This document shows positions 9,311 through 24,614 of a stretch of 32,000 nucleotides of DNA, piece by piece. A program made the translations under genes and the position numbers. Each line of letters opens with the position of its first letter. Position 1 is the stretch's first letter. The stretch is from assembly GCF_008065095.1 (NCBI RefSeq), contig NZ_CP042911.1, positions 2,370,001-2,402,000 on the forward strand. Reading direction: 5' to 3'. The notes beneath the pieces are model-generated. The model ran no database searches, was not told where the DNA came from, and was given only the letters and a program-made list of their open reading frames with translations. This stretch comes from Gemmata obscuriglobus (GTDB taxonomy: Bacteria > Planctomycetota > Planctomycetia > Gemmatales > Gemmataceae).

Positions 9311-9979
9311 ATGCGGGTGTGCTTCGCCGTGGTCGTGCTCGCGGGTATAGTGGGTGCGGACCCTGCGAGCGGATTTTCACCCGCGGCCCGCGAACGTGGG
9401 GTGAGCGCGACGGTCAAGGTTACCAGCGCTGCCGACGATAAGATCGGCAGCGGGGTGGTGATCCGGCGCACCAAGACGCAAGCGTTTGTGCTGACGGCGT
9501 GTCACGTCGTCGAGAAGGCGAAGGTGGTGGAGGTGCGGGTTCCTGGAACAAAAGATACACCTGGAAAAACGCTGAAGGCCGAGGTGCTGGAACGCGAGCC
9601 GGCGGCGGATTTGGCGGTTCTGCGGTTGTCCGTTGAGGGCGTTCCCGGGGCCGTGCCCCTCGCACCCGCTGGGGTCAAGCCGAAACTGGTTCTGAGCGTC
9701 GGATGGGAAAAGGGTGACGCCCCGGGGGCACTCGATGAGTCGCTCAAGGGGCGAGTGAGCTTGCGGAAGCCTGGTGCGGCGAACGTGGTGGCGTGCTTCG
9801 AAACGGTTCGCAAACAGGCGGAGGGCCGTTCCGGCGGGCCGCTGCTCGACGAGTCGGGGCGGGTAATTGGGGTCGCGACCGGGCACGACGGAAAAACTGG
9901 CTATTACGTGCATGTGGACGAAGTGCGGGCGTTTCTCAAAGCGAACGCGCTGGGATGGATCGTCGAAGAGGACCGGTGA
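9311..9979 (+). CDS. Secreted trypsin-like (S1/chymotrypsin-fold) serine protease, no PDZ domain
   Basis: Signal peptide MRVCFAVVVLAGIVGA. Catalytic triad context: LTACHVV (His), ADLAVLRL (Asp), GRSGGPLL (Ser). AGGGGG lies 5 nt before the ATG. Confidence 0.8.
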   Translation: MRVCFAVVVLAGIVGADPASGFSPAARERGVSATVKVTSAADDKIGSGVVIRRTKTQAFVLTACHVVEKAKVVEVRVPGTKDTPGKTLKAEVLEREPAADLAVLRLSVEGVPGAVPLAPAGVKPKLVLSVGWEKGDAPGALDESLKGRVSLRKPGAANVVACFETVRKQAEGRSGGPLLDESGRVIGVATGHDGKTGYYVHVDEVRAFLKANALGWIVEEDR

Positions 9980-10076: not shown

Positions 10077-10376
10077 ATGAATGCAGTGTCGATGCTCAGA
10101 GGGGGGCCGTCGCGACGGGCCTCCTTGGGGGCGGTACTCGTGCTCCTCGTGGCGCCACTCGGCGCCGTGGTCGCACTGAACCCGTGGGCGGGCGCCGCGG
10201 CCGCGCCGGCCGTCGCGCCGGCCGATGCCATCGGTCTGAACGTGATCGAACCGGTCGATAAGGTCGGTACCCCGGTGGCCCCGGTCGCCATGAGTAAGGG
10301 GGATACCGAGCGGGCTGTCGGAGAGTGGAACCCGACCGGCGGCGGTAGGGGGAAAGGTGGCTCGCCCAAGGGGTAA
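10077..10376 (+). CDS. Small secreted protein (99 aa), Tat-like N-terminus, Gly/Lys-rich tail; unknown function
   Basis: High GC3 in this frame. GGAGGG lies 9 nt upstream of ATG 10077. N-terminus is GGPSRRASLGAVLVLLVAPLGAVVAL followed by AGAAAAP. The longer ORF-track version (from 9867) overlaps the protease gene. The start could also be the Met at 10092. Confidence 0.5.
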   Translation: MNAVSMLRGGPSRRASLGAVLVLLVAPLGAVVALNPWAGAAAAPAVAPADAIGLNVIEPVDKVGTPVAPVAMSKGDTERAVGEWNPTGGGRGKGGSPKG

Positions 10377-10385
10377 GTCTATTGG

Positions 10386-10415
10386 CGCCCCGCGCCCTGC
10401 GGGCGCGGGGCGTTT
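10386..10415 (+). terminator. Intrinsic-terminator-like hairpin: 12-bp perfect GC stem, 3-nt loop, then TTT
   Basis: cgccccgcgccc-tgc-gggcgcggggcg followed by ttt, 10 nt after the stop of the small ORF. It lies inside the ORF-track N-terminal extension of the next gene, which argues for the downstream start at 10495. Confidence 0.6.
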
Positions 10416-10494
10416 CGTGAACAGAACCGTTGTCCCGGTTCAAGAGCACGTGTCACTGAGAGCGGCCCGTGCCGCGCTGACATTTCGGAGCGAG

Positions 10495-12951
10495 ATGACT
10501 TCACCGACCGATTCGCCCATAGCCCCCGACCCGCGGACGCGGTTCCTGCGCGCGACCATCGAAGCGGTCGTGCTGAGCGGGTGTGTGTTGTCCCCGTGGG
10601 CGTTCGCGGCCGTTCACCCGGTGTCGGTGTTCGGACTGTTTGTTTTAGTTGCGGTCGCCCTCGCGCTTTGGGCCTTGGTGCTCCTGATCGAGCGCCGGTT
10701 CGTGGGGGTGGTGTGTCCGGTGCTCGTGTGCTTCGCCGGGTTCGTCTCGCTCGGCGCGTGGCAACTCGTGCCACTTGCGCCTGCGGCCCTTTCCGCCCTG
10801 GCGCCGGCAACGGCGGAGGCTCGCGCTTCACTGGTCCCCGCAGAACCTGAATCGCTGACCGGTGAGGTGCCGGTGCCGGAGCCGGCCCGCATCAGTTTCG
10901 ACCCGGGGGCGACCCGGCGAGAGGTCGCGAAGCTGCTCGCCGTAATGGCCCTGTTCGCAGTTGTAAGATACGCCGTAGCCACCCCCGCCAGCTACCGCCG
11001 GTTCGCACTGGTGTGCGTCGCCAATGGGGTTGCACTTTCGGTGCTCGCGCTCGCGCAGCGGTTCAGCTCAAACCCCCACACCATCTACTGGAACTTTGAG
11101 ACGCAAGGGAGTGTGTTCGGCCCGTTCGTGTGTAAAAACCACTTCCCGTACTACGTCACTGTGTGCTTTGGGCTGGGATTGGGGCTGTTGCTCGGGGGGC
11201 ACGCGTTTCGTGAGCGGGCCGCCGGCCTCTCCGGGCGCTTGGCCGCACTCGGACGGGACCCCCGCGCGCCGTGGCTGTTGGCCGCGCTGGGACTCATGCT
11301 GGCAGCGAACCTGTACAGCCTGTCACGGGGTGGGATCGTTGCCCTGGTCGGTGCCGGGGTGGTGTGTGCCGCGCTGGCCGTACTGATCGGCGGACGAGCC
11401 GGCGGGGCGGCCCGAGTTGTCCCGGTAGTCGCGCTGATCTCGGCTCTCGCGGCGGGACTGGTCGGCTGGTTCGGGGCGGACGCGGTGAGCAAGCGGTTCG
11501 GCACCTTGGGCGATGCCGATGCGCTTGACGTCGGCCGCCGTGACCTGTGGGCGCGCACTTTGCCGCTAGCACTGAAGTACCCGATTTGGGGCACGGGACA
11601 GGGGACGTTCGTGTCGGCCGAGCCGCAGCAGCGGCACCCGGGCGACACGCAACTCGTTACCTGGGAGCACGCACACAACGATTACCTTGAGACCCTCGTC
11701 GAGGGCGGTCTCGTTCAGTTCGTGTTGCTGCTGTTCGTGGCAGCGCTGGTGTTCCGAGCCGGCGTGCGTGCGGTTCGCACCGCGGGCACTCGAGCGGACG
11801 CGGCGTTGCGCCTCGGTGGGTTGTTCGGGCTCAGCGCGGTTGCGCTCCACAGCCTCGCGGACTTCGGGCTTCACATGCCCGCGATCGTATTCCTGGTAAC
11901 GGTGCTGGCCGCGCATTTGACCGCCGCGGGTGCGACCGGGGCCGTACACGCGGGCCGGCTCGTCGGGCCGCGTTGGGCCGTTATACCGGTCGTGGCGGGG
12001 TGCCTCATCGTGGCAGTAACGCTGCCGGCCGAAGGATGGCGCCGGGAGCGGGCCGAACATTACCGGCTCGCAGCGATCCGAGCGGAAAAGCGGTTGCCGG
12101 CCGGCGAACGTGAGCCGGTGGTCGGGTATCTCACTGCTGCGGTGGCGTTTGCGCCAGATGACGCGGCGCTGTGGCTGCGGCTCGCTGACGTGCAGCACGA
12201 GGAACACCTTGCGCTCCGGGGCCGTGCCCCGGGCGCCGCAAGTGAGTGCCTGCGTTCAGCGCTCCGGAGCTACCTGCGGGCGCGGGCGCTGAACCCGCTT
12301 TTGGAGCGACCGCACGCGCGGCTTGCCGCAGGGCGATCCCACTTAACCAACTCGGCTCCGGCCGCAGTTTATTTGGACCGGGCGGCGCGCCTCCGCCCGT
12401 CCGACCCCGGCCTTTGGTATCTTGCGGGCCTCGCGCACCTTGATGCGAACGCGGATGACGCCGCATGGGAGTGCTGGCGCCGGTCCCTGATCTGTTCGGA
12501 CGCGCAATTAGAAGGGATCGTTGCGGCCGCGGTTTCGCGGCTCGATGGGGCCGGGCTCCTCGACCGAATTCTCCCTCCTGATCCGAAACTGATGGTTGCC
12601 GCGTCGCGCCTTCCCGCGCTGGCCGAGCGGCCGGCGGATCGGGTAGCCATTTTGGAACGGGTCGGGCAACTGCTTGAGGCGGCCAGCGACCCGGACGAGT
12701 TGCACTTGCGAGCCCGGGTCCTGCTCGACGTGGGGCGCCCGGTGGACGCGTTGCGGGCTTACGAGCGGGCCGTGCTGAAAGCCCCCGGTCGGTCCGAGTG
12801 GCGGTTCGAGCTGGCCGAACTGTGCTTCGAGCAGGGCCAAATTGAACCAGCCGCCGAGCACGTTCGGCAGGTCCTCCGGGACCGCCCGGACTGGCCCGCG
12901 GCGCGCGATCTGAATGCCGCCATCGTCCGCGCCCGGGCCGGGTTGCGGTGA
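10495..12951 (+). CDS. O-antigen ligase/polymerase-like (Wzy_C) polytopic membrane protein fused to a C-terminal TPR-repeat domain
   Basis: About 12 TM segments. Wzy_C signature: YPIWGTGQGTF ... WEHAHNDYLETLVEGG. The C-terminal ~270 aa have TPR-like helical repeats (AALWLRLADV, LWYLAGLAHLDANADDAAWECW, ALRAYERAVLKAP). GGAG lies 6 nt before ATG 10495. Confidence 0.8.
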   Translation: MTSPTDSPIAPDPRTRFLRATIEAVVLSGCVLSPWAFAAVHPVSVFGLFVLVAVALALWALVLLIERRFVGVVCPVLVCFAGFVSLGAWQLVPLAPAALSALAPATAEARASLVPAEPESLTGEVPVPEPARISFDPGATRREVAKLLAVMALFAVVRYAVATPASYRRFALVCVANGVALSVLALAQRFSSNPHTIYWNFETQGSVFGPFVCKNHFPYYVTVCFGLGLGLLLGGHAFRERAAGLSGRLAALGRDPRAPWLLAALGLMLAANLYSLSRGGIVALVGAGVVCAALAVLIGGRAGGAARVVPVVALISALAAGLVGWFGADAVSKRFGTLGDADALDVGRRDLWARTLPLALKYPIWGTGQGTFVSAEPQQRHPGDTQLVTWEHAHNDYLETLVEGGLVQFVLLLFVAALVFRAGVRAVRTAGTRADAALRLGGLFGLSAVALHSLADFGLHMPAIVFLVTVLAAHLTAAGATGAVHAGRLVGPRWAVIPVVAGCLIVAVTLPAEGWRRERAEHYRLAAIRAEKRLPAGEREPVVGYLTAAVAFAPDDAALWLRLADVQHEEHLALRGRAPGAASECLRSALRSYLRARALNPLLERPHARLAAGRSHLTNSAPAAVYLDRAARLRPSDPGLWYLAGLAHLDANADDAAWECWRRSLICSDAQLEGIVAAAVSRLDGAGLLDRILPPDPKLMVAASRLPALAERPADRVAILERVGQLLEAASDPDELHLRARVLLDVGRPVDALRAYERAVLKAPGRSEWRFELAELCFEQGQIEPAAEHVRQVLRDRPDWPAARDLNAAIVRARAGLR

Positions 12952-15316: not shown

Positions 15317-16483
15317 GTGATTCACCTGGGCAAGTATTACCCGCCATCGCCCGGCGGAATCGAGGGTCACACCCAATCTCTCGCCCGCGCGCAGGCGGCG
15401 CTTGGGGCCGATGTGCGCGTGGTGGTGGTGAACCACCGCGCTCGCGACGGCCACGATGCGACTTTCGAGAAATGGACCCGCACCCCGTGGGCTGAAGACG
15501 CCGACGGCCAGGTGCGGATCACACGGGTCGGGCGACTTGCGAACGTTGCGAAGCTGGATGTGGCCCCGGGGCTGTCTGGTCTGCTCAACGATCTGGCCCG
15601 GAACCCGCCGGACGTGTGGCACCTGCATGCGCCGAACATTACGATGATGCTTGCGGTGCTGCGGTGCCGCTGGCTCGCCCCGCTCGTCATCACTCACCAC
15701 AGCGACATCGTCCGGCAGAAGTTGCTGAAGCACTTCGTCCGGCCGCTTGAAGTGGCGCTGTACCGAAGGGCTGCCCGCATTCTCCCCACCAGCGGGTCGT
15801 ACGTTGACGGCTCCGATCTGCTCCAGCAGTTCGCGAATAAGCTCACGCCGGTTCCGCTCGGCATGGACCTGTCACCGTTTCAGACCCCTTCGGCCGCAGC
15901 GCGTGCGTGTGCGGAGCGGTTCCGGGAGCGGTTCCGGGGGCCGGTGTGGCTCTGTGTCGGCCGTTTGATCTACTACAAGGGTTTGCACGTCGCCCTCGAA
16001 GCGCTCAAAAGAGTGCCCGGCACGCTGGTGGTGATCGGCACTGGCCCGCTCGGGGCCGAACTCAATCGTAAGGCACAGGAGCTGGGGGTTGCGGATCGGG
16101 TGGTCTGGTACGGGCACGCGTCCGCAGACGAACTCGTTGGCGCGTACCTCGCGTCCGCCGCTCTCTGGTTTCCGAGCGTGGCCCGGAGTGAGGGGTTCGG
16201 GTTGGTGCAAGTGGAGGCCATGGCGGCCGGTTGCCCGGTGATCAACACCGCGGTGCCTGCGAGCGGTGTTGCCTGGGTCGCGCGGCACGAACAGGAATCG
16301 CTGACGGTTCCTGTGAGCGACTCGGCCGCCCTGGCGGCGGCGGCGAACCGTCTGTTGACAGAGGCTGGGTTAAAGGACCGACTCGTCGCTGCGGCGCGTA
16401 TGCGGGCCGCGGCTGAGTTCGACTGGCTGGTGATGGGGAGGCGATGTCTGGCCGTTTACGGCGAGGTTGCCGGGCGGGTGTAG
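15317..16483 (+). CDS. Glycosyltransferase family 4 (GT-B fold)
   Basis: N-terminus IHLGKYYPPSPGGIEGH. C-terminal EX7E region: FPSVARSEGFGLVQVEAMAAGCPVINT. GTG start as in the ORF track; exact start uncertain. Confidence 0.85.
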   Translation: MIHLGKYYPPSPGGIEGHTQSLARAQAALGADVRVVVVNHRARDGHDATFEKWTRTPWAEDADGQVRITRVGRLANVAKLDVAPGLSGLLNDLARNPPDVWHLHAPNITMMLAVLRCRWLAPLVITHHSDIVRQKLLKHFVRPLEVALYRRAARILPTSGSYVDGSDLLQQFANKLTPVPLGMDLSPFQTPSAAARACAERFRERFRGPVWLCVGRLIYYKGLHVALEALKRVPGTLVVIGTGPLGAELNRKAQELGVADRVVWYGHASADELVGAYLASAALWFPSVARSEGFGLVQVEAMAAGCPVINTAVPASGVAWVARHEQESLTVPVSDSAALAAAANRLLTEAGLKDRLVAAARMRAAAEFDWLVMGRRCLAVYGEVAGRV

Positions 16484-16534: not shown

Positions 16535-16918
16535 GTGACGCAGATCGCCTTCACCGTCGGCAAGAAGACGTTGTTCAACATAACGCAGAAGGTTCCGAAT
16601 TTATGGATAGTCATGACCAGTAATTCGCTGCTGAACCCTGCATAGGCGTTCTCGCGGTCAAACGGGCGTTTACGCCCGCCGCGCGGCTCGAATTGAGGCA
16701 TCGCACCGAGTTCGGTTGCGTTCGAGGCGGCCACGCCGAAAGCTGCGGCCGCGGGGATGCGAGAGGTGATCCGCCGGGTCCTGGAAAACCGCGCGGAGGT
16801 TGCGGCCGGTTCTCGTCAGGTCGCTGAAGGGTATCAGTCACTGATGACGGTGGTAAACAAGCTCGAGTGGGTGCTCCGTGGGGAGCCTGCCGATTGCCAA
16901 ATGGGGAGGGCGATGTGA
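16535..16918 (+). pseudogene. Possible degraded glycosyltransferase remnant (frame-broken fragments; last fragment 16697-16918 keeps coding-like GC3)
   Basis: Fragment 16535-16645 reads VTQIAFTVGKKTLFNITQKVPNLWIVMTSNSLLNPA*. Fragment 16697-16918 reads GIAPSSVAFEAATPKAAAAGMREVIRRVLENRAEVAAGSRQVAEGYQSLMTVVNKLEWVLRGE..., which resembles a GT4 C-terminal tail. Its TGA (16916-16918) overlaps the GTG start (16915) of the next GT. Interpretation by eye only. Confidence 0.3.
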
Positions 16919-18027
16919 GGGTCCTCCATTTGACTGCCGGGAACTTGTACGGTGGTATCGAAACATACCTGGTGACCTTGGCCCGGTCCCGGCACCTGTG
17001 TCCAGAGATGGAACCGGAGTTCGGGCTTTGCTTCCGCGGGCGGCTGTGGGACGAGTTGTCTGCAGCGGGAGTGCCGGTTCACGACTTGGGAGCAGTTCGG
17101 TTCAGCCGCCCGTGGTCCGTGCTCCGCGCGCGGCGGCGGTTAAAACGAGTGCTCCGGGGGGCGCCGTTCGGTGCGGCGGTGACGCACGCGAACTGGCCGC
17201 ACGCGGTGTTTGCGCCGGTGGTACGTGGGAGCCGGGTGGGGTTGGTCAACGCGGTTCACGACGCGCTCGCCCGGCCCATCTGGTTGGACCGGTGGGCCGC
17301 CCGGACCGCTCCTGACTTGGTGCTCGCCAACAGTCAGTTTACGGCCGTCCCGGCGGCAACGTTCTTTGCCCGCTCACCGGTCGAAGTCGTGTACCTGCCG
17401 GTTGCGCCTCCGGAGTCGTTCGACCGCGCGGCCACGCGTCACGCGGTGCGGACCGAACTCGGTGCGCCGGCCGACGCGGTCGTGCTGCTCCAGGCCTCGC
17501 GGCTGGAGCGGTGGAAAGGGCAGCGCGTTCATGTGGAGGCCTTGGGGCGGCTGAAGGGTGTGCCTGGGTGGGAGGTGTGGTTCGCGGGCGGCCCGCAGAA
17601 GGCCGGCGAAGCGGAATTTTTTGCCGAACTCAGGGCGGCGGTCGCTCAGCTTGGGATCTCGGACCGGGTGCGTTTCTTGGGCCAGCGGTCTGACGTGCCT
17701 CGGCTGATGGCCGCGGCGGACGTGTACTGCCAGCCGAACGCCGGCCCCGAGCCGTTCGGGGTTGTGTTCGTGGAGGCCCTGTACGCGGGTCTGCCGGTCG
17801 TTACCTCGGACTTGGGCGGCGGGCGCGAGGTGGTCGATTCGAGCTGCGGGGTGCTCGTCCCGCCGGGCGAGCCTGCTGCGGTTGCTGCCGCGCTGGCGGA
17901 ACTGATTTCCGATCCGGCCCGCCGCGCCGCCTTGGGTGCGGGCGGGCCGAAGCGGGCTGAAGAACTGTGCGCCCCACACCGTCAACTGGACCGTATCGCG
18001 GGTCTGTTACAAAAGGTATCGTCGTGA
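16915..18027 (+). CDS. Glycosyltransferase family 4 (GT-B fold)
   Basis: VRVLHLTAGNLYGGIETYL N-terminus and PNAGPEPFGVVFVEALYAGLPVVTSD motif. GGGGAGGG lies 6 nt before GTG 16915; the ORF-track start 16867 adds 16 non-conserved residues. Confidence 0.85.
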   Translation: MRVLHLTAGNLYGGIETYLVTLARSRHLCPEMEPEFGLCFRGRLWDELSAAGVPVHDLGAVRFSRPWSVLRARRRLKRVLRGAPFGAAVTHANWPHAVFAPVVRGSRVGLVNAVHDALARPIWLDRWAARTAPDLVLANSQFTAVPAATFFARSPVEVVYLPVAPPESFDRAATRHAVRTELGAPADAVVLLQASRLERWKGQRVHVEALGRLKGVPGWEVWFAGGPQKAGEAEFFAELRAAVAQLGISDRVRFLGQRSDVPRLMAAADVYCQPNAGPEPFGVVFVEALYAGLPVVTSDLGGGREVVDSSCGVLVPPGEPAAVAAALAELISDPARRAALGAGGPKRAEELCAPHRQLDRIAGLLQKVSS

Positions 18028-18704
18028 CGACTCTTGCCCGGGCCGAGCAAACGCACGGCACCAGTGGTGTGGCTATCTATCAACTGGTCGCAGCGGTTTT
18101 GACCGCGCGTCACAGCGGCGGGGGAACCGTCGTCGACGTGGGTTGTGGGCGTGGAGAGTTGTATCAGTACATCAAAGGCCGATTCGGGTCGTATGCCGGC
18201 ACGGACGTGCTCCGCTACGACGGTTTCCCCGATGAAGGCGCGTTCCACCTCACCGACCTGGACAGCGGCCGCGTTGCGCTACCGGACGCCGTCGCCGACT
18301 GCGTCGTCGCCGTGGAAACGATCGAGCACTTGGAAAACCCTCGCGCTTTCGCCCGTGAACTCGTGCGGTTGGTGAAGCCCGGCGGGTGGGTGGTCGTGAC
18401 GACCCCGAATCAGTTGAGCTTGTTGAGCCTGCTCACGCTGGTTGTGCAAGGCGAATTTAACGGTTTCCGGGAGCGCCCGGGCCTCTACCCGGCGCACATC
18501 ACGGCGCTGCTGGAGATCGATCTGCGGCGCATTTTTCGTGAGTGCGGCTTGGCCGACGTGGCTGTCGAATACACCAAAAGCGGTCGTGTTCCCGGCATCA
18601 GCCGTCACTGGCCTCGGTGGGCGTCCCGGTTGTTCCCCCGGAGGCTGTCGGATAACGTGCTGGTAGTGGGTCGGCGGCCGGTCTCAAATGGCGATCGCAC
18701 ATGA
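18024..18704 (+). CDS. Class I SAM-dependent methyltransferase
   Basis: Motif I VVDVGCGRGELY, then CVVAVETIEHLENP and LVKPGGWVVVTTPN. GTG 18024 overlaps the upstream GT stop (GTGA), consistent with translational coupling. Confidence 0.85.
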   Translation: MTTLARAEQTHGTSGVAIYQLVAAVLTARHSGGGTVVDVGCGRGELYQYIKGRFGSYAGTDVLRYDGFPDEGAFHLTDLDSGRVALPDAVADCVVAVETIEHLENPRAFARELVRLVKPGGWVVVTTPNQLSLLSLLTLVVQGEFNGFRERPGLYPAHITALLEIDLRRIFRECGLADVAVEYTKSGRVPGISRHWPRWASRLFPRRLSDNVLVVGRRPVSNGDRT

Positions 18705-18905
18705 TCAGGTGCCGGCACCCCGGCTCGGTCAGTGGTCCGGTGACTGGGGTGCGGAATGGTTCGAACGCGACCCTGGTGTTCATTCCGATCGGTAGGCAAA
18801 ACGTCGATGATTGCGGTGGCCCCTGCGGGCCGTGCGAAGTCGAACGTGATGGCCGCAGGCGGGTGTGAAACTATCGAGCCGTTTCCGCAGCGTAAAGTGA
18901 TCGCA

Positions 18906-20273
18906 ATGTACCCTCAGCCCGTTGCACCGCCGAATCCCGTTGGGGTCGCTTATACCGGTCCCGGCGCCGCACGCTGGCTGTACGGCTTCTTACTTTTCCA
19001 GTTCGTTTGCCAGGCCTCTCTTGTTGCCCCGCTCGGTCCGCTGCGGATCGGGTTCCGGGTTGCTACTTTCGCGAGCAGCTTACTGATGCTGGTGCTGCTC
19101 CCGCGCTACGGGCCGACGCTCCCAAACTCGTCCTGGGTGTGGCTCGTGATCGGTCTGACCGGGCTCGGGGCGCTTCACCCGGATGTCAACTCGCGACTCG
19201 CTGCCGTGGCGCAACTGGGGCTGACTGTTGCGATCTGGGCACCGGTTTTTTGGGCCACCCGGTTTCGCTTGACCGCCCAGCACTTTCGCACGGCCATGCT
19301 GCTTCTGTGGGGCTTTCAAACGCTCAGTGCGGTCGTTGGCGTCTTGCAGGTGATGTACCCGGACCAGTTCTCCCCGGACCCAGAGTTCGTTAAGGCGCAG
19401 AGCGGTGAAATGGCGGAGGGGCTAAAAATCGAACTCGCCAACGGCGAGCGCGTGTGGCGGCCGTTCGGTCTGACTGACACGCCGGGCGGTGCCGCCGGTG
19501 CCGGAATGTTTGCGGTGCTCGCCGGTTTGGTTCTGGTCTCTTACGAGCGCAGGTTACTGCTCCGGTTGGCTGGTGCTGGCGGGGCGGTCATAGGCATGTT
19601 CTGCTTGTACGTGTGCCAAGTTCGCACCGGCATCGTTCTCACCGGCATTGGGCTCATCGTGTCACTGCTTCTGGCGGTGTCTCGCGGAAGGCTCGTTCAG
19701 GCGGCCTGGATCGGTGGCGGGGCGGCGGCGGCAGTTGCAAGTGGCTTCGTCTGGGCGACGACCGTTGGCGGCGACGCGGTTACGGCCCGGCTGGAAACAC
19801 TGGTCGCAGACCGGGCCGATCAGGTCTATTACTCCAGCCGTGGTCGCTTCCTGGAGCACACGATTGACTTGATCACCGAGTACCCTGTTGGGGCCGGCGC
19901 GGGGCGCTGGGGGATGATGACGGCCTACTTCGGCGACCCGATGAACCTGGAGTCGCCCTCGCTGTGGGTCGAGATCCAACCGACGGCGTGGCTTTATGAC
20001 GGCGGTGTGTTCCTCCTGCTCGCGGGGTACGTGGCCGTGCTCGTCGGGGGCTGGGCGTCTCTCCGGGCCATGCTTTGGGTGAAAGATCCGGTTGTAGCCG
20101 GGTGGGGGGGGTTGATCGTTGCCATGAATATTGCCACGCTCGCGAACACATTTTCCTATGCGATTTTTGCAAGCCAGACCGGAATGATGTGCTGGGTGTT
20201 CACGGGCGTTCTGTATGCCCGCGCCTTTCCTTGCGCTCCGAACCGATTCGCACCAGGGCGGCCCATCGCGTGA
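18906..20273 (+). CDS. Wzy-like polymerase / O-antigen-ligase-family polytopic membrane protein
   Basis: About 10-12 TM segments. A Wzy_C-like loop reads SSRGRFLEHTIDLITEYPVGAGAGRWG. Start placed at ATG 18906 (MYPQP...); the upstream 50 aa of the ORF-track call look non-coding. The start is uncertain. Confidence 0.65.
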   Translation: MYPQPVAPPNPVGVAYTGPGAARWLYGFLLFQFVCQASLVAPLGPLRIGFRVATFASSLLMLVLLPRYGPTLPNSSWVWLVIGLTGLGALHPDVNSRLAAVAQLGLTVAIWAPVFWATRFRLTAQHFRTAMLLLWGFQTLSAVVGVLQVMYPDQFSPDPEFVKAQSGEMAEGLKIELANGERVWRPFGLTDTPGGAAGAGMFAVLAGLVLVSYERRLLLRLAGAGGAVIGMFCLYVCQVRTGIVLTGIGLIVSLLLAVSRGRLVQAAWIGGGAAAAVASGFVWATTVGGDAVTARLETLVADRADQVYYSSRGRFLEHTIDLITEYPVGAGAGRWGMMTAYFGDPMNLESPSLWVEIQPTAWLYDGGVFLLLAGYVAVLVGGWASLRAMLWVKDPVVAGWGGLIVAMNIATLANTFSYAIFASQTGMMCWVFTGVLYARAFPCAPNRFAPGRPIA

Positions 20274-20377
20274 CCTCGCCCGCGACTACCTTTGCCATCG
20301 TTGCAGGCGATTTTGTTCCGACGGGCGGGATGGATCGGGCGAACTACGCCCTGGCATCCACCTGGCTCGGTCCAGGC
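20173..20377. repeat. Direct repeat copy 1 (~205 bp): genuine 3' end of the Wzy-like gene plus a dead GT 5' end
   Basis: Aligns by eye to 21391-21596 with about 14 substitutions and one 1-nt indel (hand count, roughly 93% identity). The offset is 1218 bp before the indel and 1219 bp after it. Confidence 0.85.
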
Positions 20378-20449
20378 GTGCTGGATTTGTGGAGACGTTG
20401 CGCTTGGGCCGGGGTGCGGGCTAAAGAGGTGATTTTATATTTATTATAG
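20270..20449 (+). pseudogene. Truncated, frameshifted N-terminal fragment of a GT4 glycosyltransferase (paralogous to the start of the 21488 gene)
   Basis: VTSPATTFAIVAGDFVPTGGMDRANYALAS matches VTSPSTTFAIVTGDFVPTGGMDRANYALAS of the intact GT. A 1-nt deletion (tccacctgg versus tcctatctgg) then shifts the frame, similarity ends near 20377, and a stop follows at 20449. Confidence 0.6.
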
Positions 20450-20471
20450 CGTGTTATTAAAGGGGTTGTTT

Positions 20472-21335
20472 GTGATTTCATTGTCAGTACTAAAGCCGTG
20501 GTATGTCTACCGGCCCAGGCAGGTGCTGCGTCGAATAGTGCGAGGCCTGCGTCCGCCCAAGGACCCCATCCAAGTGGTGCGACTCCCGTGGGGTTGTGCA
20601 TTGGAAATTGATATTCGTGAAGATATTGGCCGTAGTGTGTGGACTGCTGGTGTGTTTGATCTTGCTGTCGCAGAGGTGCTGTTTCGAGCTGCGGACCCCG
20701 CGCTGCTCGCGCTGGATGTTGGGGCGAATATCGGTTCGATGTCTGGGCTGCTCGCGGCTCGGGCTGCCGAAGTGTGGGCGTTCGAGCCTTACCCGCCAGT
20801 GCTTGAGCGGTTGCGTCGTAATGTGAGTCGCCTCACGGGGGCCGGCCAATTTGCTCACTGTCAGGTGTTTCCCCTCGCGCTAAGCGACCATGAAGGCGAA
20901 GCTCGACTCGCCTGTCCAGATGGCTCCGATAAGAACCACGGACTGGCGCGTATAGCTGATTCCGGCAGCGTTGCCGTTCGTGTCGCTCCTCTTGATGCCC
21001 TTCTTGGTAATCGGGAGGTTGGGGTGATGAAGCTCGATGTGGAGGGGCATGAGCAAGCCGTTCTCTCTGGTGCCACGCATTCCCTCGCGGCAGGCCGCAT
21101 CCGAAACATCGTGTTCGAAGACCACGTTGGCCCAGGCGGAGCAGTTGGCAAAATCCTACGCAGCTATGGTTACAAATTGTACGCCATTGGTTGGGTGCTT
21201 CGCGGTCCTGTACTCAAACCGGCGGACGAAACGGCGCACCGCGTGTACGAGGCGCCGAGTTACTTGGCAACACTTGCGCCTGAAGTTGTGGCCAGCTGTC
21301 GGCAACGCGGTTGGCGATGTTTAGGGAGAGGATAG
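20472..21335 (+). CDS. FkbM-family methyltransferase
   Basis: FkbM motifs LALDVGANIGSMSG and VMKLDVEGHEQAVLSG. AAGGGG lies ~6 nt before GTG 20472 (ORF-track start GTG 20451 is also possible). Third codon positions are visibly less G/C-rich than in the neighbouring genes. Confidence 0.85.
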   Translation: MISLSVLKPWYVYRPRQVLRRIVRGLRPPKDPIQVVRLPWGCALEIDIREDIGRSVWTAGVFDLAVAEVLFRAADPALLALDVGANIGSMSGLLAARAAEVWAFEPYPPVLERLRRNVSRLTGAGQFAHCQVFPLALSDHEGEARLACPDGSDKNHGLARIADSGSVAVRVAPLDALLGNREVGVMKLDVEGHEQAVLSGATHSLAAGRIRNIVFEDHVGPGGAVGKILRSYGYKLYAIGWVLRGPVLKPADETAHRVYEAPSYLATLAPEVVASCRQRGWRCLGRG

Positions 21336-21390
21336 TATGCGGGTTTTTAGATTTTCGGGCGGCCAATGGTCGCGTTTTTTTGATCAACGG

Positions 21391-21596
21391 GCCAGACCGG
21401 AATGATGTGCTGGGTGTTCACGGGCGTACAGAACGCCCGTGCCTTTCCTTGCGCTCCGAACCGATTCGCACCAGGGCGGCTCATCGCGTGACCTCACCCT
21501 CGACTACCTTTGCCATCGTTACAGGCGATTTTGTTCCGACGGGCGGGATGGATCGGGCGAACTATGCCCTGGCGTCCTATCTGGCTCGGTCCGGGC
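21391..21596. repeat. Direct repeat copy 2 (~206 bp): dead Wzy 3' tail plus the genuine 5' end of the GT4 gene
   Basis: See copy 1. The same GTGA stop/start junction is retained at 21488-21491. Confidence 0.85.
21419..21441 (+). other. Perfect 9-bp stem / 5-nt loop hairpin (cacgggcgt-acaga-acgcccgtg) followed by cctttcctt, between the FkbM stop and the GT start
   Basis: Read directly. The homologous stretch in repeat copy 1 pairs only 7/9. Possible terminator, attenuator or RNA-stability element. Confidence 0.4.
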
Positions 21597-22627
21597 ACGC
21601 CGTCGAACTGGTTACGCACCGGGCGAGCCCTGAACTCGCGGCCCTGGACCGGGTCCGCGTGCGAACGGCCCGCAAGCCGCTCGGCTCGTACTTCCTCGGC
21701 CGATGGCCGCTCCGGTGGGCGGCGGCGCGTGCCGTTCGGGAGGGCGGGTCCAAACGGGTTGTGGCGAACGGCGGCAATTTTGTCTCGACCGACATCAACT
21801 GGGTTCATTACGTTCACGCCGCGTTCCGGCCGACTGCGCCGGCCTCGTTCGCCCGACGGTTAAAGGGGCGGGTCGATCGGGTGCTCGAGCTGCGGGCCGA
21901 GCGTGTCTCGCTGGGGGCCGCGCGAACGGTGGTCTGCAACTCGGAGCGGACCCGCTCGGACGTCATCAACCGCTGTGGGGTCGATCCGGAGCGGGCCGTG
22001 GTCGTCTATTACGGCACCGATCCGGACCTGTTCAGGCCTGCAACAGAAGACGACCGAAGGGAGCTACGTGCGAAACTCGGCTGGCCGTCCGACCGGCCGG
22101 TGGTGATGTTTATCGGCGCTCTCGGTGACCGGCGGAAGGGGTTCGACACTCTGTTTGCGGCGTGGTCGACGCTGTGCCAAGAGTCGGGGTGGGATCCGGT
22201 TCTGGCCGTTGTCGGCCGCGGGGCAGAACTCGCCGCGTGGGAGGAGCGGGCGCGGCAGGGCGGGTTGGCGGACCGTGTCCGGTTTCTGGGGTTCCGCAGC
22301 GACGTTCCGGATCTGCTCCGCGCCGCGGACGCGCTCGTCGCCCCGACGCGGTACGAGGCGTACGGGCTGGGGGTGCATGAGGCGCTGTGTTGCGGCCTGC
22401 CGGCTCTGGTCACCGCTTCGGCGGGAGTGGCCGAGCGGTACCCGCCCGAACTGGCCCACCTCCTGCTTCCCGATCCGGATGACGCGCCCGATCTGGTCCA
22501 GCGCTTGCGGCGGTGGCGGTCCGATTCGGCCGCGGTTCGGGGCCACCTTCAGGTGCTTTCAGACACGCTCAGAGCATTTACCTGGGATGATATGGGGAAG
22601 CGGTTCGTGCAGGCTTGCGGGGCGTAA
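21488..22627 (+). CDS. Glycosyltransferase family 4 (GT-B fold)
   Basis: N-terminus TFAIVTGDFVPTGGMDRANYALASYLARSGHAVELV and EX7E region APTRYEAYGLGVHEALCCGLPALVT. Start set at GTG 21488 because the ORF-track extension (from 21311) reads through the dead Wzy tail and overlaps the FkbM gene. Confidence 0.85.
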   Translation: MTSPSTTFAIVTGDFVPTGGMDRANYALASYLARSGHAVELVTHRASPELAALDRVRVRTARKPLGSYFLGRWPLRWAAARAVREGGSKRVVANGGNFVSTDINWVHYVHAAFRPTAPASFARRLKGRVDRVLELRAERVSLGAARTVVCNSERTRSDVINRCGVDPERAVVVYYGTDPDLFRPATEDDRRELRAKLGWPSDRPVVMFIGALGDRRKGFDTLFAAWSTLCQESGWDPVLAVVGRGAELAAWEERARQGGLADRVRFLGFRSDVPDLLRAADALVAPTRYEAYGLGVHEALCCGLPALVTASAGVAERYPPELAHLLLPDPDDAPDLVQRLRRWRSDSAAVRGHLQVLSDTLRAFTWDDMGKRFVQACGA

Positions 22628-22991
22628 CGCGGCTTCAATGATGTATAGAGCTGAGCCGCTGAGAAGTATAGACGCCGTTGCCAAAACACCCTTGATCAAC
22701 GCGTGTTGTATGTGCTGTGGTGATAGCCGATCGGTTGCGATACGTGGCGAGAGCTTCTGGCGTAGCTGTTGCGTAGGCGGTAAACGGTCTGTTTGATGTT
22801 GTGTTGATGGTTCTTTGACCGCGACCAGCCTAGCGGCTCGACGGCTCGTTCTCGCGAACTGTTTGTTCGCTCTTCTGGGGCATGGCCGGTCTTGGGCGAG
22901 AGCGCGCTACTGCGGCCCTGCGAGTCGGGTGTATAACTCGTCACCGGAGTGGGGGGCAGGTGCTGGCAACCGTAATCTTGAGAGGATTCTC

Positions 22992-24614
22992 GTGAGTCGC
23001 ACAGCGAAGATAGCCCGCGCACTGACCATCGGGTATGGGTTCCAAATCACAGTTGCGATTGCCGGGCTGATGTTGACCCCGTTCATGCTGTCGCGGCTTG
23101 GATCTGTGGACTACGGGCGGTGGTTAGTTGCGGGCCAGGTGCTGGCCTTAATGTCGCTGCTTGATCTCGGGGTGACGGCTGTGCTGCCGCGTGAGGTTGC
23201 ACGGGCTGTAGGCGCTGTCGAACCCGTGGGAGAGGTGGTGCGTCGGGCCAGGTGGTTGGTCTGGTTCCAGACGCCAGTGGTTGCGCTGGCCGCGATTGCT
23301 GTGTGGATGGGGGTTGCATTTGTGCGTCCCGAGTTAGGTGAGCCGCTGGCCATCGTGTTAGTCGGATTTGTGGTCCAGTTCCCTCTGAGGTTGTACGGGG
23401 CCGTTCTCGCAGGGCTCCAGGATCTGGCGTTCGGATCTGCTATTGCGGCTGGGGCGTGGGCCGTGACAACGGTGGTGTCGGTGGGGCTTGTGATGGCCGG
23501 GTACGGGCTCGTTGCTCTGTCGGTGGGGTGGACTGCCGGGCAGGTAGCCGCGGTCCTGGCGACGTGGATGCGGGTGCGGATGAGATTCCCTGCGGCTCAA
23601 GGTGTCAGCGGGTGGCCTGGGCGTGCAAGCCTGGTGCGTCTGATCGGACCGAGCTTGTGGACGAGCATAAGGCAAGTGTCTCAGCTCCTTTTAAACGGGG
23701 TCGAGTTGATCGTGCTGGGATGGGTCGCTGGTCCGACTGTTGTGGTGGCTTACGTGTGTACCACTAAGATAGTGTCTTTGGTGAATAACCAGCCGTATTT
23801 GCTGGCGATCTCGTCACTGCCAGCGGTAGCTGAATTGCACGCGGCTGGAAACCGGGAGCGGGTGTGGCGGGCGTGCCGTGCGTTGGGACTGGGAATGGGG
23901 ATGGTGAGTGGCCTCCTTATGCTTGCGGTGCTGGCGCTGAACGCCGCATTCGTTCCGCTGTGGGTCGGGCCGGCTCAATACGTCGGCCCTACGGTCACGT
24001 TCTTGGCGGTGGTTGCGATGTTCGTTCGGCATATGGCTTGTGCAAGCGGAGTGGTCCTGGCCGCCCTGAGGTTCGACGCATTGATGGCGGTTATGGGGTT
24101 GTTGGATGGATTGGTGTTTGTGCTTTCTGCTGCACTGTGGGTGTACCTGCTTGGACCGGTCGGGGTGCCACTCGGCTCTCTGACAGCCGCGTGCCTCGTG
24201 AACGGCCCGGTCACGCTGTACGTATTGCGTACCGGGTTCGGGCTCGCCCCTGTCGAGGTGTTCCGGTGGCTCGCTCCGCTCATCGTACGGTTAGCCGCAG
24301 TGCTGATTCCATTCGTGGCATTTGGCTACTCGTCAATGGCCAGTGATCCCGCAGCGGCCGGGGTAGTCGCGGCCGTTGGGTTTATTGTTTATGCCTTCGC
24401 GCTGTACCCGCTGCTTGGGCGTGACCCGCTGCGCGACTACACCCGGGGGTTCCGTGTGTCAGTCCGGCGCCAGTTGGGTTTTGCGCCTCCTGCGTCTGAT
24501 GCGCTCCGCGCAGAGGCGGCTCCTCAAGGTGCTTCTGCTGGTGAATCGCCGGCAGAGCCGTACGCTGTTCAAAGAACTGAGCCGTCAGGCGGTTCAAGCA
24601 TCCCTCCCGCGTAA
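22992..24614 (+). CDS. Wzx-type oligosaccharide flippase (MOP/polysaccharide biosynthesis protein family)
   Basis: About 12-14 TM segments. Typical N-terminus: AKIARALTIGYGFQITVAIAGLMLTPFMLSRLGSVDYGRWL. GAGAGGA lies 6 nt before GTG 22992. A ~60-aa hydrophilic C-terminal tail follows. Contains rare-looking codons (TTA, TTG, ATA, AGG). Confidence 0.75.
   Translation: MSRTAKIARALTIGYGFQITVAIAGLMLTPFMLSRLGSVDYGRWLVAGQVLALMSLLDLGVTAVLPREVARAVGAVEPVGEVVRRARWLVWFQTPVVALAAIAVWMGVAFVRPELGEPLAIVLVGFVVQFPLRLYGAVLAGLQDLAFGSAIAAGAWAVTTVVSVGLVMAGYGLVALSVGWTAGQVAAVLATWMRVRMRFPAAQGVSGWPGRASLVRLIGPSLWTSIRQVSQLLLNGVELIVLGWVAGPTVVVAYVCTTKIVSLVNNQPYLLAISSLPAVAELHAAGNRERVWRACRALGLGMGMVSGLLMLAVLALNAAFVPLWVGPAQYVGPTVTFLAVVAMFVRHMACASGVVLAALRFDALMAVMGLLDGLVFVLSAALWVYLLGPVGVPLGSLTAACLVNGPVTLYVLRTGFGLAPVEVFRWLAPLIVRLAAVLIPFVAFGYSSMASDPAAAGVVAAVGFIVYAFALYPLLGRDPLRDYTRGFRVSVRRQLGFAPPASDALRAEAAPQGASAGESPAEPYAVQRTEPSGGSSIPPA

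Follow-up and report, generated by a model that had tools for sequence, protein, structure and literature searches.

The 32,000-nucleotide (nt) stretch of the Gemmata obscuriglobus genome considered here (contig NZ_CP042911.1, positions 2,370,001 to 2,402,000 of the forward strand; hereafter the window) is an exosortase-linked, Wzy-dependent polysaccharide locus encoding EpsH, a PF00953 priming transferase, CpsB and a Poly_export protein. Within this locus, a gene for an FkbM-family methyltransferase is located between a gene for a Wzy/WaaL-like membrane protein and a gene for a GT4-family glycosyltransferase (GT), and is bracketed by two direct copies of the junction at which the two neighbouring genes overlap. 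The arrangement comprises the following features, in which ORF denotes an open reading frame and SAM denotes S-adenosylmethionine.

18756-20273, plus strand: Wzy/WaaL-like polytopic membrane protein gene, given as its longest ORF, with the stop codon TGA at 20271-20273
20173-20377, plus strand: direct repeat copy 1, consisting of the live Wzy 3' end (20173-20273) and a relic GT 5' fragment (20270-20377)
20201-20223, plus strand: imperfect hairpin CACGGGCG-ttctgta-TGCCCGCG in the live Wzy tail, -6.2 kcal/mol
20270-20449, plus strand: relic GT ORF of 59 codons, with 30 conserved amino acids (aa), a frameshift and read-through into the insert leader
20378-20471, plus strand: insert leader, its first part of ~62% G+C and 20429-20471 (43 nt) of 26% G+C
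20472-21335, plus strand: intact gene for an FkbM-family SAM-dependent methyltransferase of 287 aa with a GTG start, the putative cargo of the insertion
21336-21390, plus strand: insert 3' tail, with a weak terminator-like hairpin (21359-21373) and then a T7 run
21391-21596, plus strand: direct repeat copy 2, consisting of a relic Wzy tail (21391-21491) and the live GT 5' end (21488-21596)
21402-21491, plus strand: mini-ORF of 29 codons (MMCWVFTGVQNARAFPCAPNRFAPGRLIA, then stop), read from the sequence as a remnant of the relic Wzy tail
21419-21441, plus strand: perfect hairpin CACGGGCG-tacagaa-CGCCCGTG in the relic Wzy tail, -12.3 kcal/mol, z = -4.4
21488-22627, plus strand: live gene for a GT4-family glycosyltransferase of 379 aa (PF00534, E = 7.2e-27; PF13439, E = 1.1e-18)

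The two copies, 205 and 206 nt long, respectively, were recovered by a repeat search, by MAFFT and by global alignment, with 192 of 206 aligned columns identical and the remainder consisting of 13 mismatches and one indel; blastn likewise gives 93.2% identity over 206 bp (E = 2e-83). The indel is a 1-nt deletion in copy 1, close to the 3' end of that copy, so that the offset between the copies is 1218 upstream of the indel and 1219 past it. Perfect runs of 37-43 bp are present in the global alignment, the longest being 43 bp. A repeat of such length and identity within 32 kb cannot be due to chance. Its edges are sharp, as the similarity of the flanking sequences is at the level of shuffled sequence on both sides (p about 0.3): the homology is extended neither by the 55-nt tail of the insert when compared with the Wzy sequence upstream of copy 1 (p = 0.32 versus shuffles) nor by the leader when compared with the GT sequence downstream of copy 2 (p = 0.26 versus shuffles), and an apparent TATGCG..TTTTT similarity was dropped. 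An independent, older draft assembly of G. obscuriglobus (ABGO01000009) is 100% identical over 12,336 bp that cover both copies, indicating that repeat and insert are not an assembly artefact.

Each copy combines one live half with one relic half. In copy 1, the true stop codon of the Wzy-like gene (TGA 20271-20273) shares the sequence GTGA with the start codon of the relic GT (GTG 20270), whose peptide reads VTSPATTFAIVAGDFVPTGGMDRANYALAS before a frameshift and a stop (TAG 20447-20449) located 22 nt upstream of the FkbM start; this relic ORF (20270-20449) has no Pfam match. In copy 2, the relic Wzy tail (ending in GQTGMMCWVFTGVQNARAFPCAPNRFAPGRLIA and a stop codon) overlaps the live GT start, GTG 21488, which agrees with the GenBank gene model. 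Since the stop of the mini-ORF at 21402-21491 overlaps this start within GTGA, the sequence context upstream of the GT start is still the native one. The relic mini-ORFs at 20270-20449 and 21402-21491 could conceivably still pass ribosomes along the operon and preserve translational coupling. A preliminary description of this DNA, made from the letters and their open reading frames, had placed the copies at 20173-20377 and 21391-21596, and the repeat search and alignments return these positions, including the offset of 1218-1219 bp with its step at the indel. Counting by hand, it had arrived at some 14 substitutions plus a single indel (roughly 93% identity), which was essentially right. Its assignment of the real Wzy 3' end and a dead GT stopping at 20449 to copy 1, and of a dead Wzy tail running through the same GTGA into the intact GT to copy 2, agrees with the reading frames.

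Between the two copies lies an insert of 1012-1013 bp (20378/79-21390), which holds the leader, the intact FkbM-family methyltransferase gene and the 55-nt tail, and nothing else. The encoded protein matches PF05050 (Methyltransf_21; 54.7 bits, the curated cut-off being 22.7; E = 1.8e-14), and the 287 aa read from GTG 20472 align end to end with 32 homologues; all 46 invariant columns of this alignment are kept by the window protein, which is itself among the sequences that define them. The public gene model of 253 aa (P0001) is N-terminally truncated, the alignment with the 32 homologues backing GTG 20472 as the start, and the present analysis corrects it in this respect. An AAAGGGG Shine-Dalgarno-like motif is situated in the leader, 6 nt upstream of the GTG, and no plus-strand sigma-70-like site was found that could serve FkbM as a promoter of its own. 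On the basis of its family, the enzyme is predicted to catalyse the SAM-dependent O-methylation of a polymer sugar. The hairpin at 21359-21373 and the T7 run in the tail represent a pattern match only, as the fold is no more stable than that of shuffled sequences (z = 0.32). A derivation of the tail from the beginning of a donor's Wzy gene was rejected, the peptide of the tail (MRVFRFSGGQWSRFF...) being unlike all 53 Wzy-family N-termini.

The insert lacks the features of mobile elements. There are no terminal inverted repeats pairing its ends and no internal repeats of the kind that mark a mobile element, and a domain search found no recombinase or transposase in any major ORF of the 32-kb window. 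An integron gene cassette was considered and rejected: the stretch 21336-21395 folds no better than shuffled sequence (z = 0.32) and contains neither GTTRRRY nor an attC-like structure, and the window holds no integrase. Transposable elements, whether insertion sequences, miniature inverted-repeat transposable elements or transposons, were likewise rejected. Although they also leave the target directly duplicated at both sides of the insert, the target-site duplications of known transposases are in the range of 2-15 bp or so, whereas the duplication here spans 206 bp and is accompanied by neither terminal inverted repeats nor a transposase.

The base composition of FkbM sets it apart from its surroundings. 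Its G+C content at third codon positions (GC3) is 0.559 (z = -4.0), as against a range of 0.67-0.82 among the 19 remaining genes of the window, which average 0.742 (sd 0.045), and on account of this outlying value the gene looks horizontally acquired, apparently from an unsampled donor of lower G+C. FkbM orthologues of relatives have a GC3 of about 0.9, matching that of their neighbours, and the closest homologue outside the species in protein searches shows 68% identity and a GC3 of 0.93. Searches with the FkbM and Wzy proteins returned nothing between 100% and 68-71% identity, and no close FkbM homologue was found in plasmids and phages, where the best tblastn identity was 35%. When leader, tail and insert DNA were compared with the window and with all fetched loci, only the FkbM coding region was matched (65-71%). 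The lower G/C content at third codon positions and the absence of a recombinase from the window, both pointed out in the preliminary description, are borne out by these results; the AT-rich leader that it mentioned is seen at 20429-20471 (26% G+C), the first part of the leader having ~62% G+C.

The junction is found without an insert in Gemmata algarum JC673, the closest genome found, whose Wzy and GT proteins are 70-71% and 82% identical, respectively, to those of G. obscuriglobus. Its locus lacks FkbM and has a single Wzy/GT junction with the same GTGA overlap, the FkbM-less neighbourhood for which a comparison had been suggested, and both G. obscuriglobus copies align to this one junction (locus L004, 9313-9511). 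With G. algarum as outgroup, the changes between the copies could be polarised. In copy 1, the dead GT fragment has undergone 5 derived substitutions and the 1-nt deletion; in the live Wzy tail the number of changes is zero or two, both synonymous, according to the reading adopted for the hairpin stem. In copy 2, the dead Wzy tail shows a single derived substitution (Pro to Leu) together with a loop inversion, and the live GT start a single synonymous change. With no change counted in the live Wzy tail, 8 of 9 polarised events fall in the dead halves (one-sided binomial p = 0.02), and in the alternative stem reading 8 of 11 (p = 0.11). Such a concentration of changes in the dead halves suggests that the copies began identical and decayed later, so that a resident-derived duplication made at the time of insertion most likely gave rise to them.

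A considerable part of the divergence between the copies appears to stem from a single event. Five of the 13 mismatches fall within the 8-bp hairpin of the Wzy tail, where the 7-nt loop of copy 2 is the exact reverse complement of that of copy 1 and the 3' arm of copy 2 is exactly complementary to the 5' arm; the G. algarum hairpin has a perfect stem and a loop oriented as in copy 1. One template-switch mutation inverting the loop would explain these 5 of 13 mismatches. Template-switch (quasipalindrome) mutations with inversion of hairpin loops are familiar from the Ripley model and from loop inversions in chloroplast DNA; the present case resembles them in its exactly reverse-complemented 7-nt loop and in the 3' arm made perfect in the changed copy, and differs in being a secondary change within a relic rather than the origin of the duplication. 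The hairpin at 21419-21441 was also terminator-like in a pattern search.

The same changes provide a rough date. About 8 events in 207 redundant bases correspond to a decay of ~0.04 per site. At four-fold sites, G. obscuriglobus has diverged from G. algarum by d = 0.57, or about 0.28 per lineage. The age of the insertion would then be roughly one seventh of that of the split between the two species, with a wide error. The event is an old one, neither recent nor ongoing, and this fits the single junction in G. algarum. The preliminary description had contrasted a mobile cassette with an old, fixed rearrangement shared by all relatives and devoid of any compositional difference; the rearrangement is indeed old and fixed, yet the compositional difference is real and G. 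algarum does not have the arrangement.

Taken together, the locus probably records a duplication-insertion that occurred after the split from G. algarum and set a foreign FkbM gene between overlapping Wzy and GT genes, with both left intact. In this history, about 1 kb of foreign DNA carrying an FkbM-type O-methyltransferase with its own ribosome-binding leader would have joined the exosortase-linked operon at the GTGA overlap of the Wzy/WaaL-like gene and the next GT4 gene, and a 206-bp segment of the resident junction would have been duplicated in the process. The left end of the insert would have become attached 108 nt inside the GT gene and the right end 98 nt upstream of the Wzy stop codon (101 nt if that codon is counted), presumably on two sister chromosomes, or by way of a circular intermediate or of a staggered break with fill-in. 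As a consequence of the duplication, Wzy keeps its true 3' end in copy 1, and GT keeps its true 5' end and upstream start context in copy 2. Because the two genes overlap, only an insertion that duplicates the junction spares both of them together with the sequence upstream of GT, and we infer that such a product survived for this reason. The redundant halves would then have decayed neutrally by ~4%, including the frameshift and one hairpin-loop inversion. As a result, the Wzy-dependent glycan locus would have gained or regained a sugar O-methylation step that in relatives is encoded just upstream of Wzy. That the duplication arose in one step at insertion, by one of the molecular routes named and with a polymer sugar as the methylation target, we infer from the arrangement as it now stands.

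A precedent for such a product is provided by marker-held tandem duplications made by duplication-insertion recombineering (Dup-Ins; Nasvall et al., NAR 2017, PMC5389514), in which an insert lies between two direct copies of the target segment. The route proposed for the formation of Dup-Ins is the bridging of two sister chromosomes, and recombination between the copies can remove them; for engineered duplication-insertions of 100-210 bp, the segregation rate cannot be distinguished from background (PMC5389514). The topology is the same here, with the left end of the insert on the right edge of the target and the right end on its left edge. Dup-Ins, however, are engineered by lambda Red with designed 40-nt homologies, whereas the G. 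obscuriglobus case is natural; in addition, the duplicated segment here spans a gene overlap, both genes survive and the copies have diverged by 7%.

The preliminary description had given first place to a single crossover of Campbell type, in which a circular molecule carrying FkbM and a ~206-bp Wzy/GT junction fragment from a close strain would have integrated at the resident junction. The topology is exactly that of a single crossover, perfect runs of 37-43 bp are available inside the repeat, and the 2 synonymous and 2 conservative changes that precede the frameshift in the relic GT are what a once-functional allele might carry. The polarity of the changes nevertheless makes this origin unlikely, since differences brought in by a donor would be confined to the dead halves only if the crossover had fallen in a ~15-bp window out of 206 bp. 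Moreover, a donor ~95% identical at the junction would have been a close, high-GC3 Gemmata in which FkbM (0.56) was already foreign, which adds a step, and there is no vector backbone, origin or recombinase at the locus and no close plasmid or phage homologue (best 35%). Campbell-type integration is well known in elements that bring a replacement end for their target gene, such as e14 and phage 21 in the icd gene of Escherichia coli. The arrangement in G. obscuriglobus shares with these the direct target repeats at the flanks, the intact target gene and the redundant fragment left as a pseudogene, but it has no integrase, att core, replicon or other element genes, its cargo is a single 1-kb gene, and its polarity points to a resident origin of both copies. 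The topological core of the earlier interpretation, an insert between duplicates of the junction that either a Campbell-type event or a duplication followed by capture could produce, is retained; a diverged, donor-borne junction fragment is made unlikely by the polarity.

Gene order in more distant relatives raises the question of whether FkbM could have come from within the locus itself. In these organisms, FkbM lies directly upstream of Wzy, which is followed by GT, often with 4-bp overlaps; the order FkbM-Wzy-GT was established by sequence in loci L002/L003, L008 and L025 and by gene pattern in the P0009 contig. Loci L007 and L006 were not counted because the ORFs downstream of their FkbM genes fall outside this Wzy family. 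The order Wzy-FkbM-GT occurs in no other locus among the relatives compared, and the conservation of FkbM-Wzy-GT in distant relatives marks the G. obscuriglobus FkbM as a xenologous copy in a non-canonical position. A relocation within the locus would start from this canonical order: FkbM-Wzy-GT' would be duplicated in tandem, after which the first FkbM and the greater part of the second Wzy would be lost. Such a course predicts exactly the two relics that are present (Wzy-GT'-FkbM-'Wzy-GT), and the 58% identity of FkbM to its L002 orthologue lies inside the 49-69% range of other locus genes. It is nonetheless distinctly improbable, as it requires three events, the GC3 of FkbM (0.56) is unlike that of its supposed long-term neighbours, and the G. 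algarum locus is without any FkbM. At ~4% decay, leader and tail should also match the spacer between Wzy and the upstream class-I methyltransferase gene (MT23), which they do not. Furthermore, no FkbM relic was found in the spacer at 18600-18950 in six frames, where hmmsearch gave a non-significant -4.6 bits with the best alignment falling on the FkbM C-terminal motif.

The MT23-Wzy slot is empty in G. obscuriglobus and filled by FkbM in the distant relatives; in G. algarum (L004 5628-7804) it is occupied by GT8 and acyltransferase_3 genes with a GC3 below that of their neighbours, and no relics of these two genes were found in the window. The slot appears to be a variable hotspot. In the metagenomic FkbM-Wzy-GT relative represented by L002, transposase fragments (rve, DDE_3 and HTH_Tnp_1; positions 1-1390) lie a few kb upstream of the polysaccharide genes.

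It had also been suggested that the repeats might serve as an on/off switch, being kept under selection so that RecA-mediated deletion of FkbM would vary the methylation of the glycan. As the preliminary description foresaw, recombination between the repeats would recreate a coupled Wzy-GT pair with a G. algarum-like overlap, most crossover points would leave intact genes, and the perfect runs of up to 43 bp exceed the minimum usually required for efficient homologous recombination. An active, selected switch is nevertheless highly improbable and finds no support here. The loss of FkbM would be irreversible and hence one-way; the repeats are short (206 bp), only 93% identical and decaying instead of conserved; and engineered duplication-insertions of 100-210 bp are lost at background frequency (PMC5389514). 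The insert has, moreover, been retained through ~4% neutral divergence and is present in all three assemblies, which are consensus sequences of one strain. It is conceivable, though quite unlikely as a generalisation, that duplication of a gene-overlap junction represents a general, hitherto unrecognised route by which tightly coupled operons take up genes between overlapping genes, with relic mini-ORFs keeping the coupling and the repeats allowing rare, precise loss of the methyltransferase and hence variation at the strain level.

Several considerations weigh against a duplication-insertion of foreign DNA as the history of this locus. The nearest FkbM relative, at 68% identity, itself has a GC3 of 0.93, which leaves composition as the only argument for a horizontal origin. 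The statistic on polarity comprises 9-11 events and one outgroup that is ~81% identical in this region, and the three G. obscuriglobus assemblies compared all represent one strain, so that the species is covered by a single strain. As leader and tail have no detectable relatives, the ends of the insert and any microhomology at the joints are unreadable and the molecular routes inseparable. A circle carrying junction DNA derived from the resident would give the same product, as would an earlier tandem duplication of 206 bp followed by insertion, and neither can be told apart from duplication at the moment of insertion.

The flanking Wzy-like gene deserves comment with regard to both its start and its identity. 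The longest ORF begins at 18756 and the GenBank model at 18807, and the N-termini of homologues suggest a start at about 18906. The protein has no Pfam match, PF04932 (Wzy_C) being absent even at E <= 10, and a 54%-identical homologue (P0124) scores 29.2 bits with Wzy_C, below the cut-off of 31.7. An AlphaFold2 model built from 30 homologues (predicted local distance difference test score of 90.4) has the WaaL O-antigen ligase 7TPG_B as its only significant match in the PDB (E = 2.7e-5, probability 1.00, template-modelling scores 0.48/0.53), and the profile of the Wzy family matched no PDB sequence. This fold match justifies the label Wzy/WaaL-like at the superfamily level, at which the predicted polymerase and ligase roles of the ORF at 18756-20273 are indistinguishable. 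A total of 53 homologues were found, with that of G. algarum the closest at 71%.

Beyond the genes already named, the locus encodes a Wzz-like protein with a P-loop NTPase domain (a chain-length regulator of the tyrosine-kinase type), a Wzy_C-TPR protein, a beta-helix protein, many GT4 enzymes and one GT2. A trypsin-like peptidase gene (9311-9979) and the gene for the Wzy_C-TPR fusion protein (10357-12951) belong to the same exosortase-linked locus; together with the ORF at 18756-20273, the latter brings the membrane proteins of the Wzy/WaaL superfamily in the locus to two.

Comparison with G. algarum reveals further differences, the loci of the two Gemmata species being separated by several gene-sized indels. 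Between the counterparts of the GT4 genes at 15317-16483 and 16867-18027, G. algarum has an intact 526-aa ORF (L004 2035-3615), to the C-terminal part of which the G. obscuriglobus spacer at 16541-16672 shows a weak tblastn match (E = 3e-4); this spacer may be the relic of a deleted gene. On the 3' side of GT, a 599-aa ORF (22815-24614) has no Pfam match and is only 40% identical, beside a GT of 82% identity, to a G. algarum counterpart (L004 10927-12459) that matches Polysacc_synt_3, and hence it probably encodes a flippase. Beyond this ORF, the loci of the two species bear no relation to each other; the locus has a mosaic structure, with a breakpoint near 22630-22815. Wzy-dependent O-antigen and capsule loci are known to acquire modification genes of low GC in their central region, a process that the present case resembles in having a modification gene of lower GC3 beside wzy within a mosaic locus. 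It differs in that the joint has been kept as a long duplication and that the gene is a xenologue of the usual Wzy neighbour, placed on the opposite side.

The arrangement thus constitutes neither a new kind of mobile element nor a new regulatory system; rather, it belongs to a class of rearrangement already known, of which it is a neat instance. Its value lies in being a clean natural case of a gene added inside a translationally coupled operon with its neighbours unbroken, in which the joint is still readable and roughly datable. Deletion of FkbM through the repeats would yield a scar-free mutant for tests of glycan O-methylation in a planctomycete. More broadly, the arrangement illustrates that the polysaccharide loci of Gemmata are mosaics, and it suggests the re-acquisition, from outside and in a new position, of a methylation step that is conserved in related loci.

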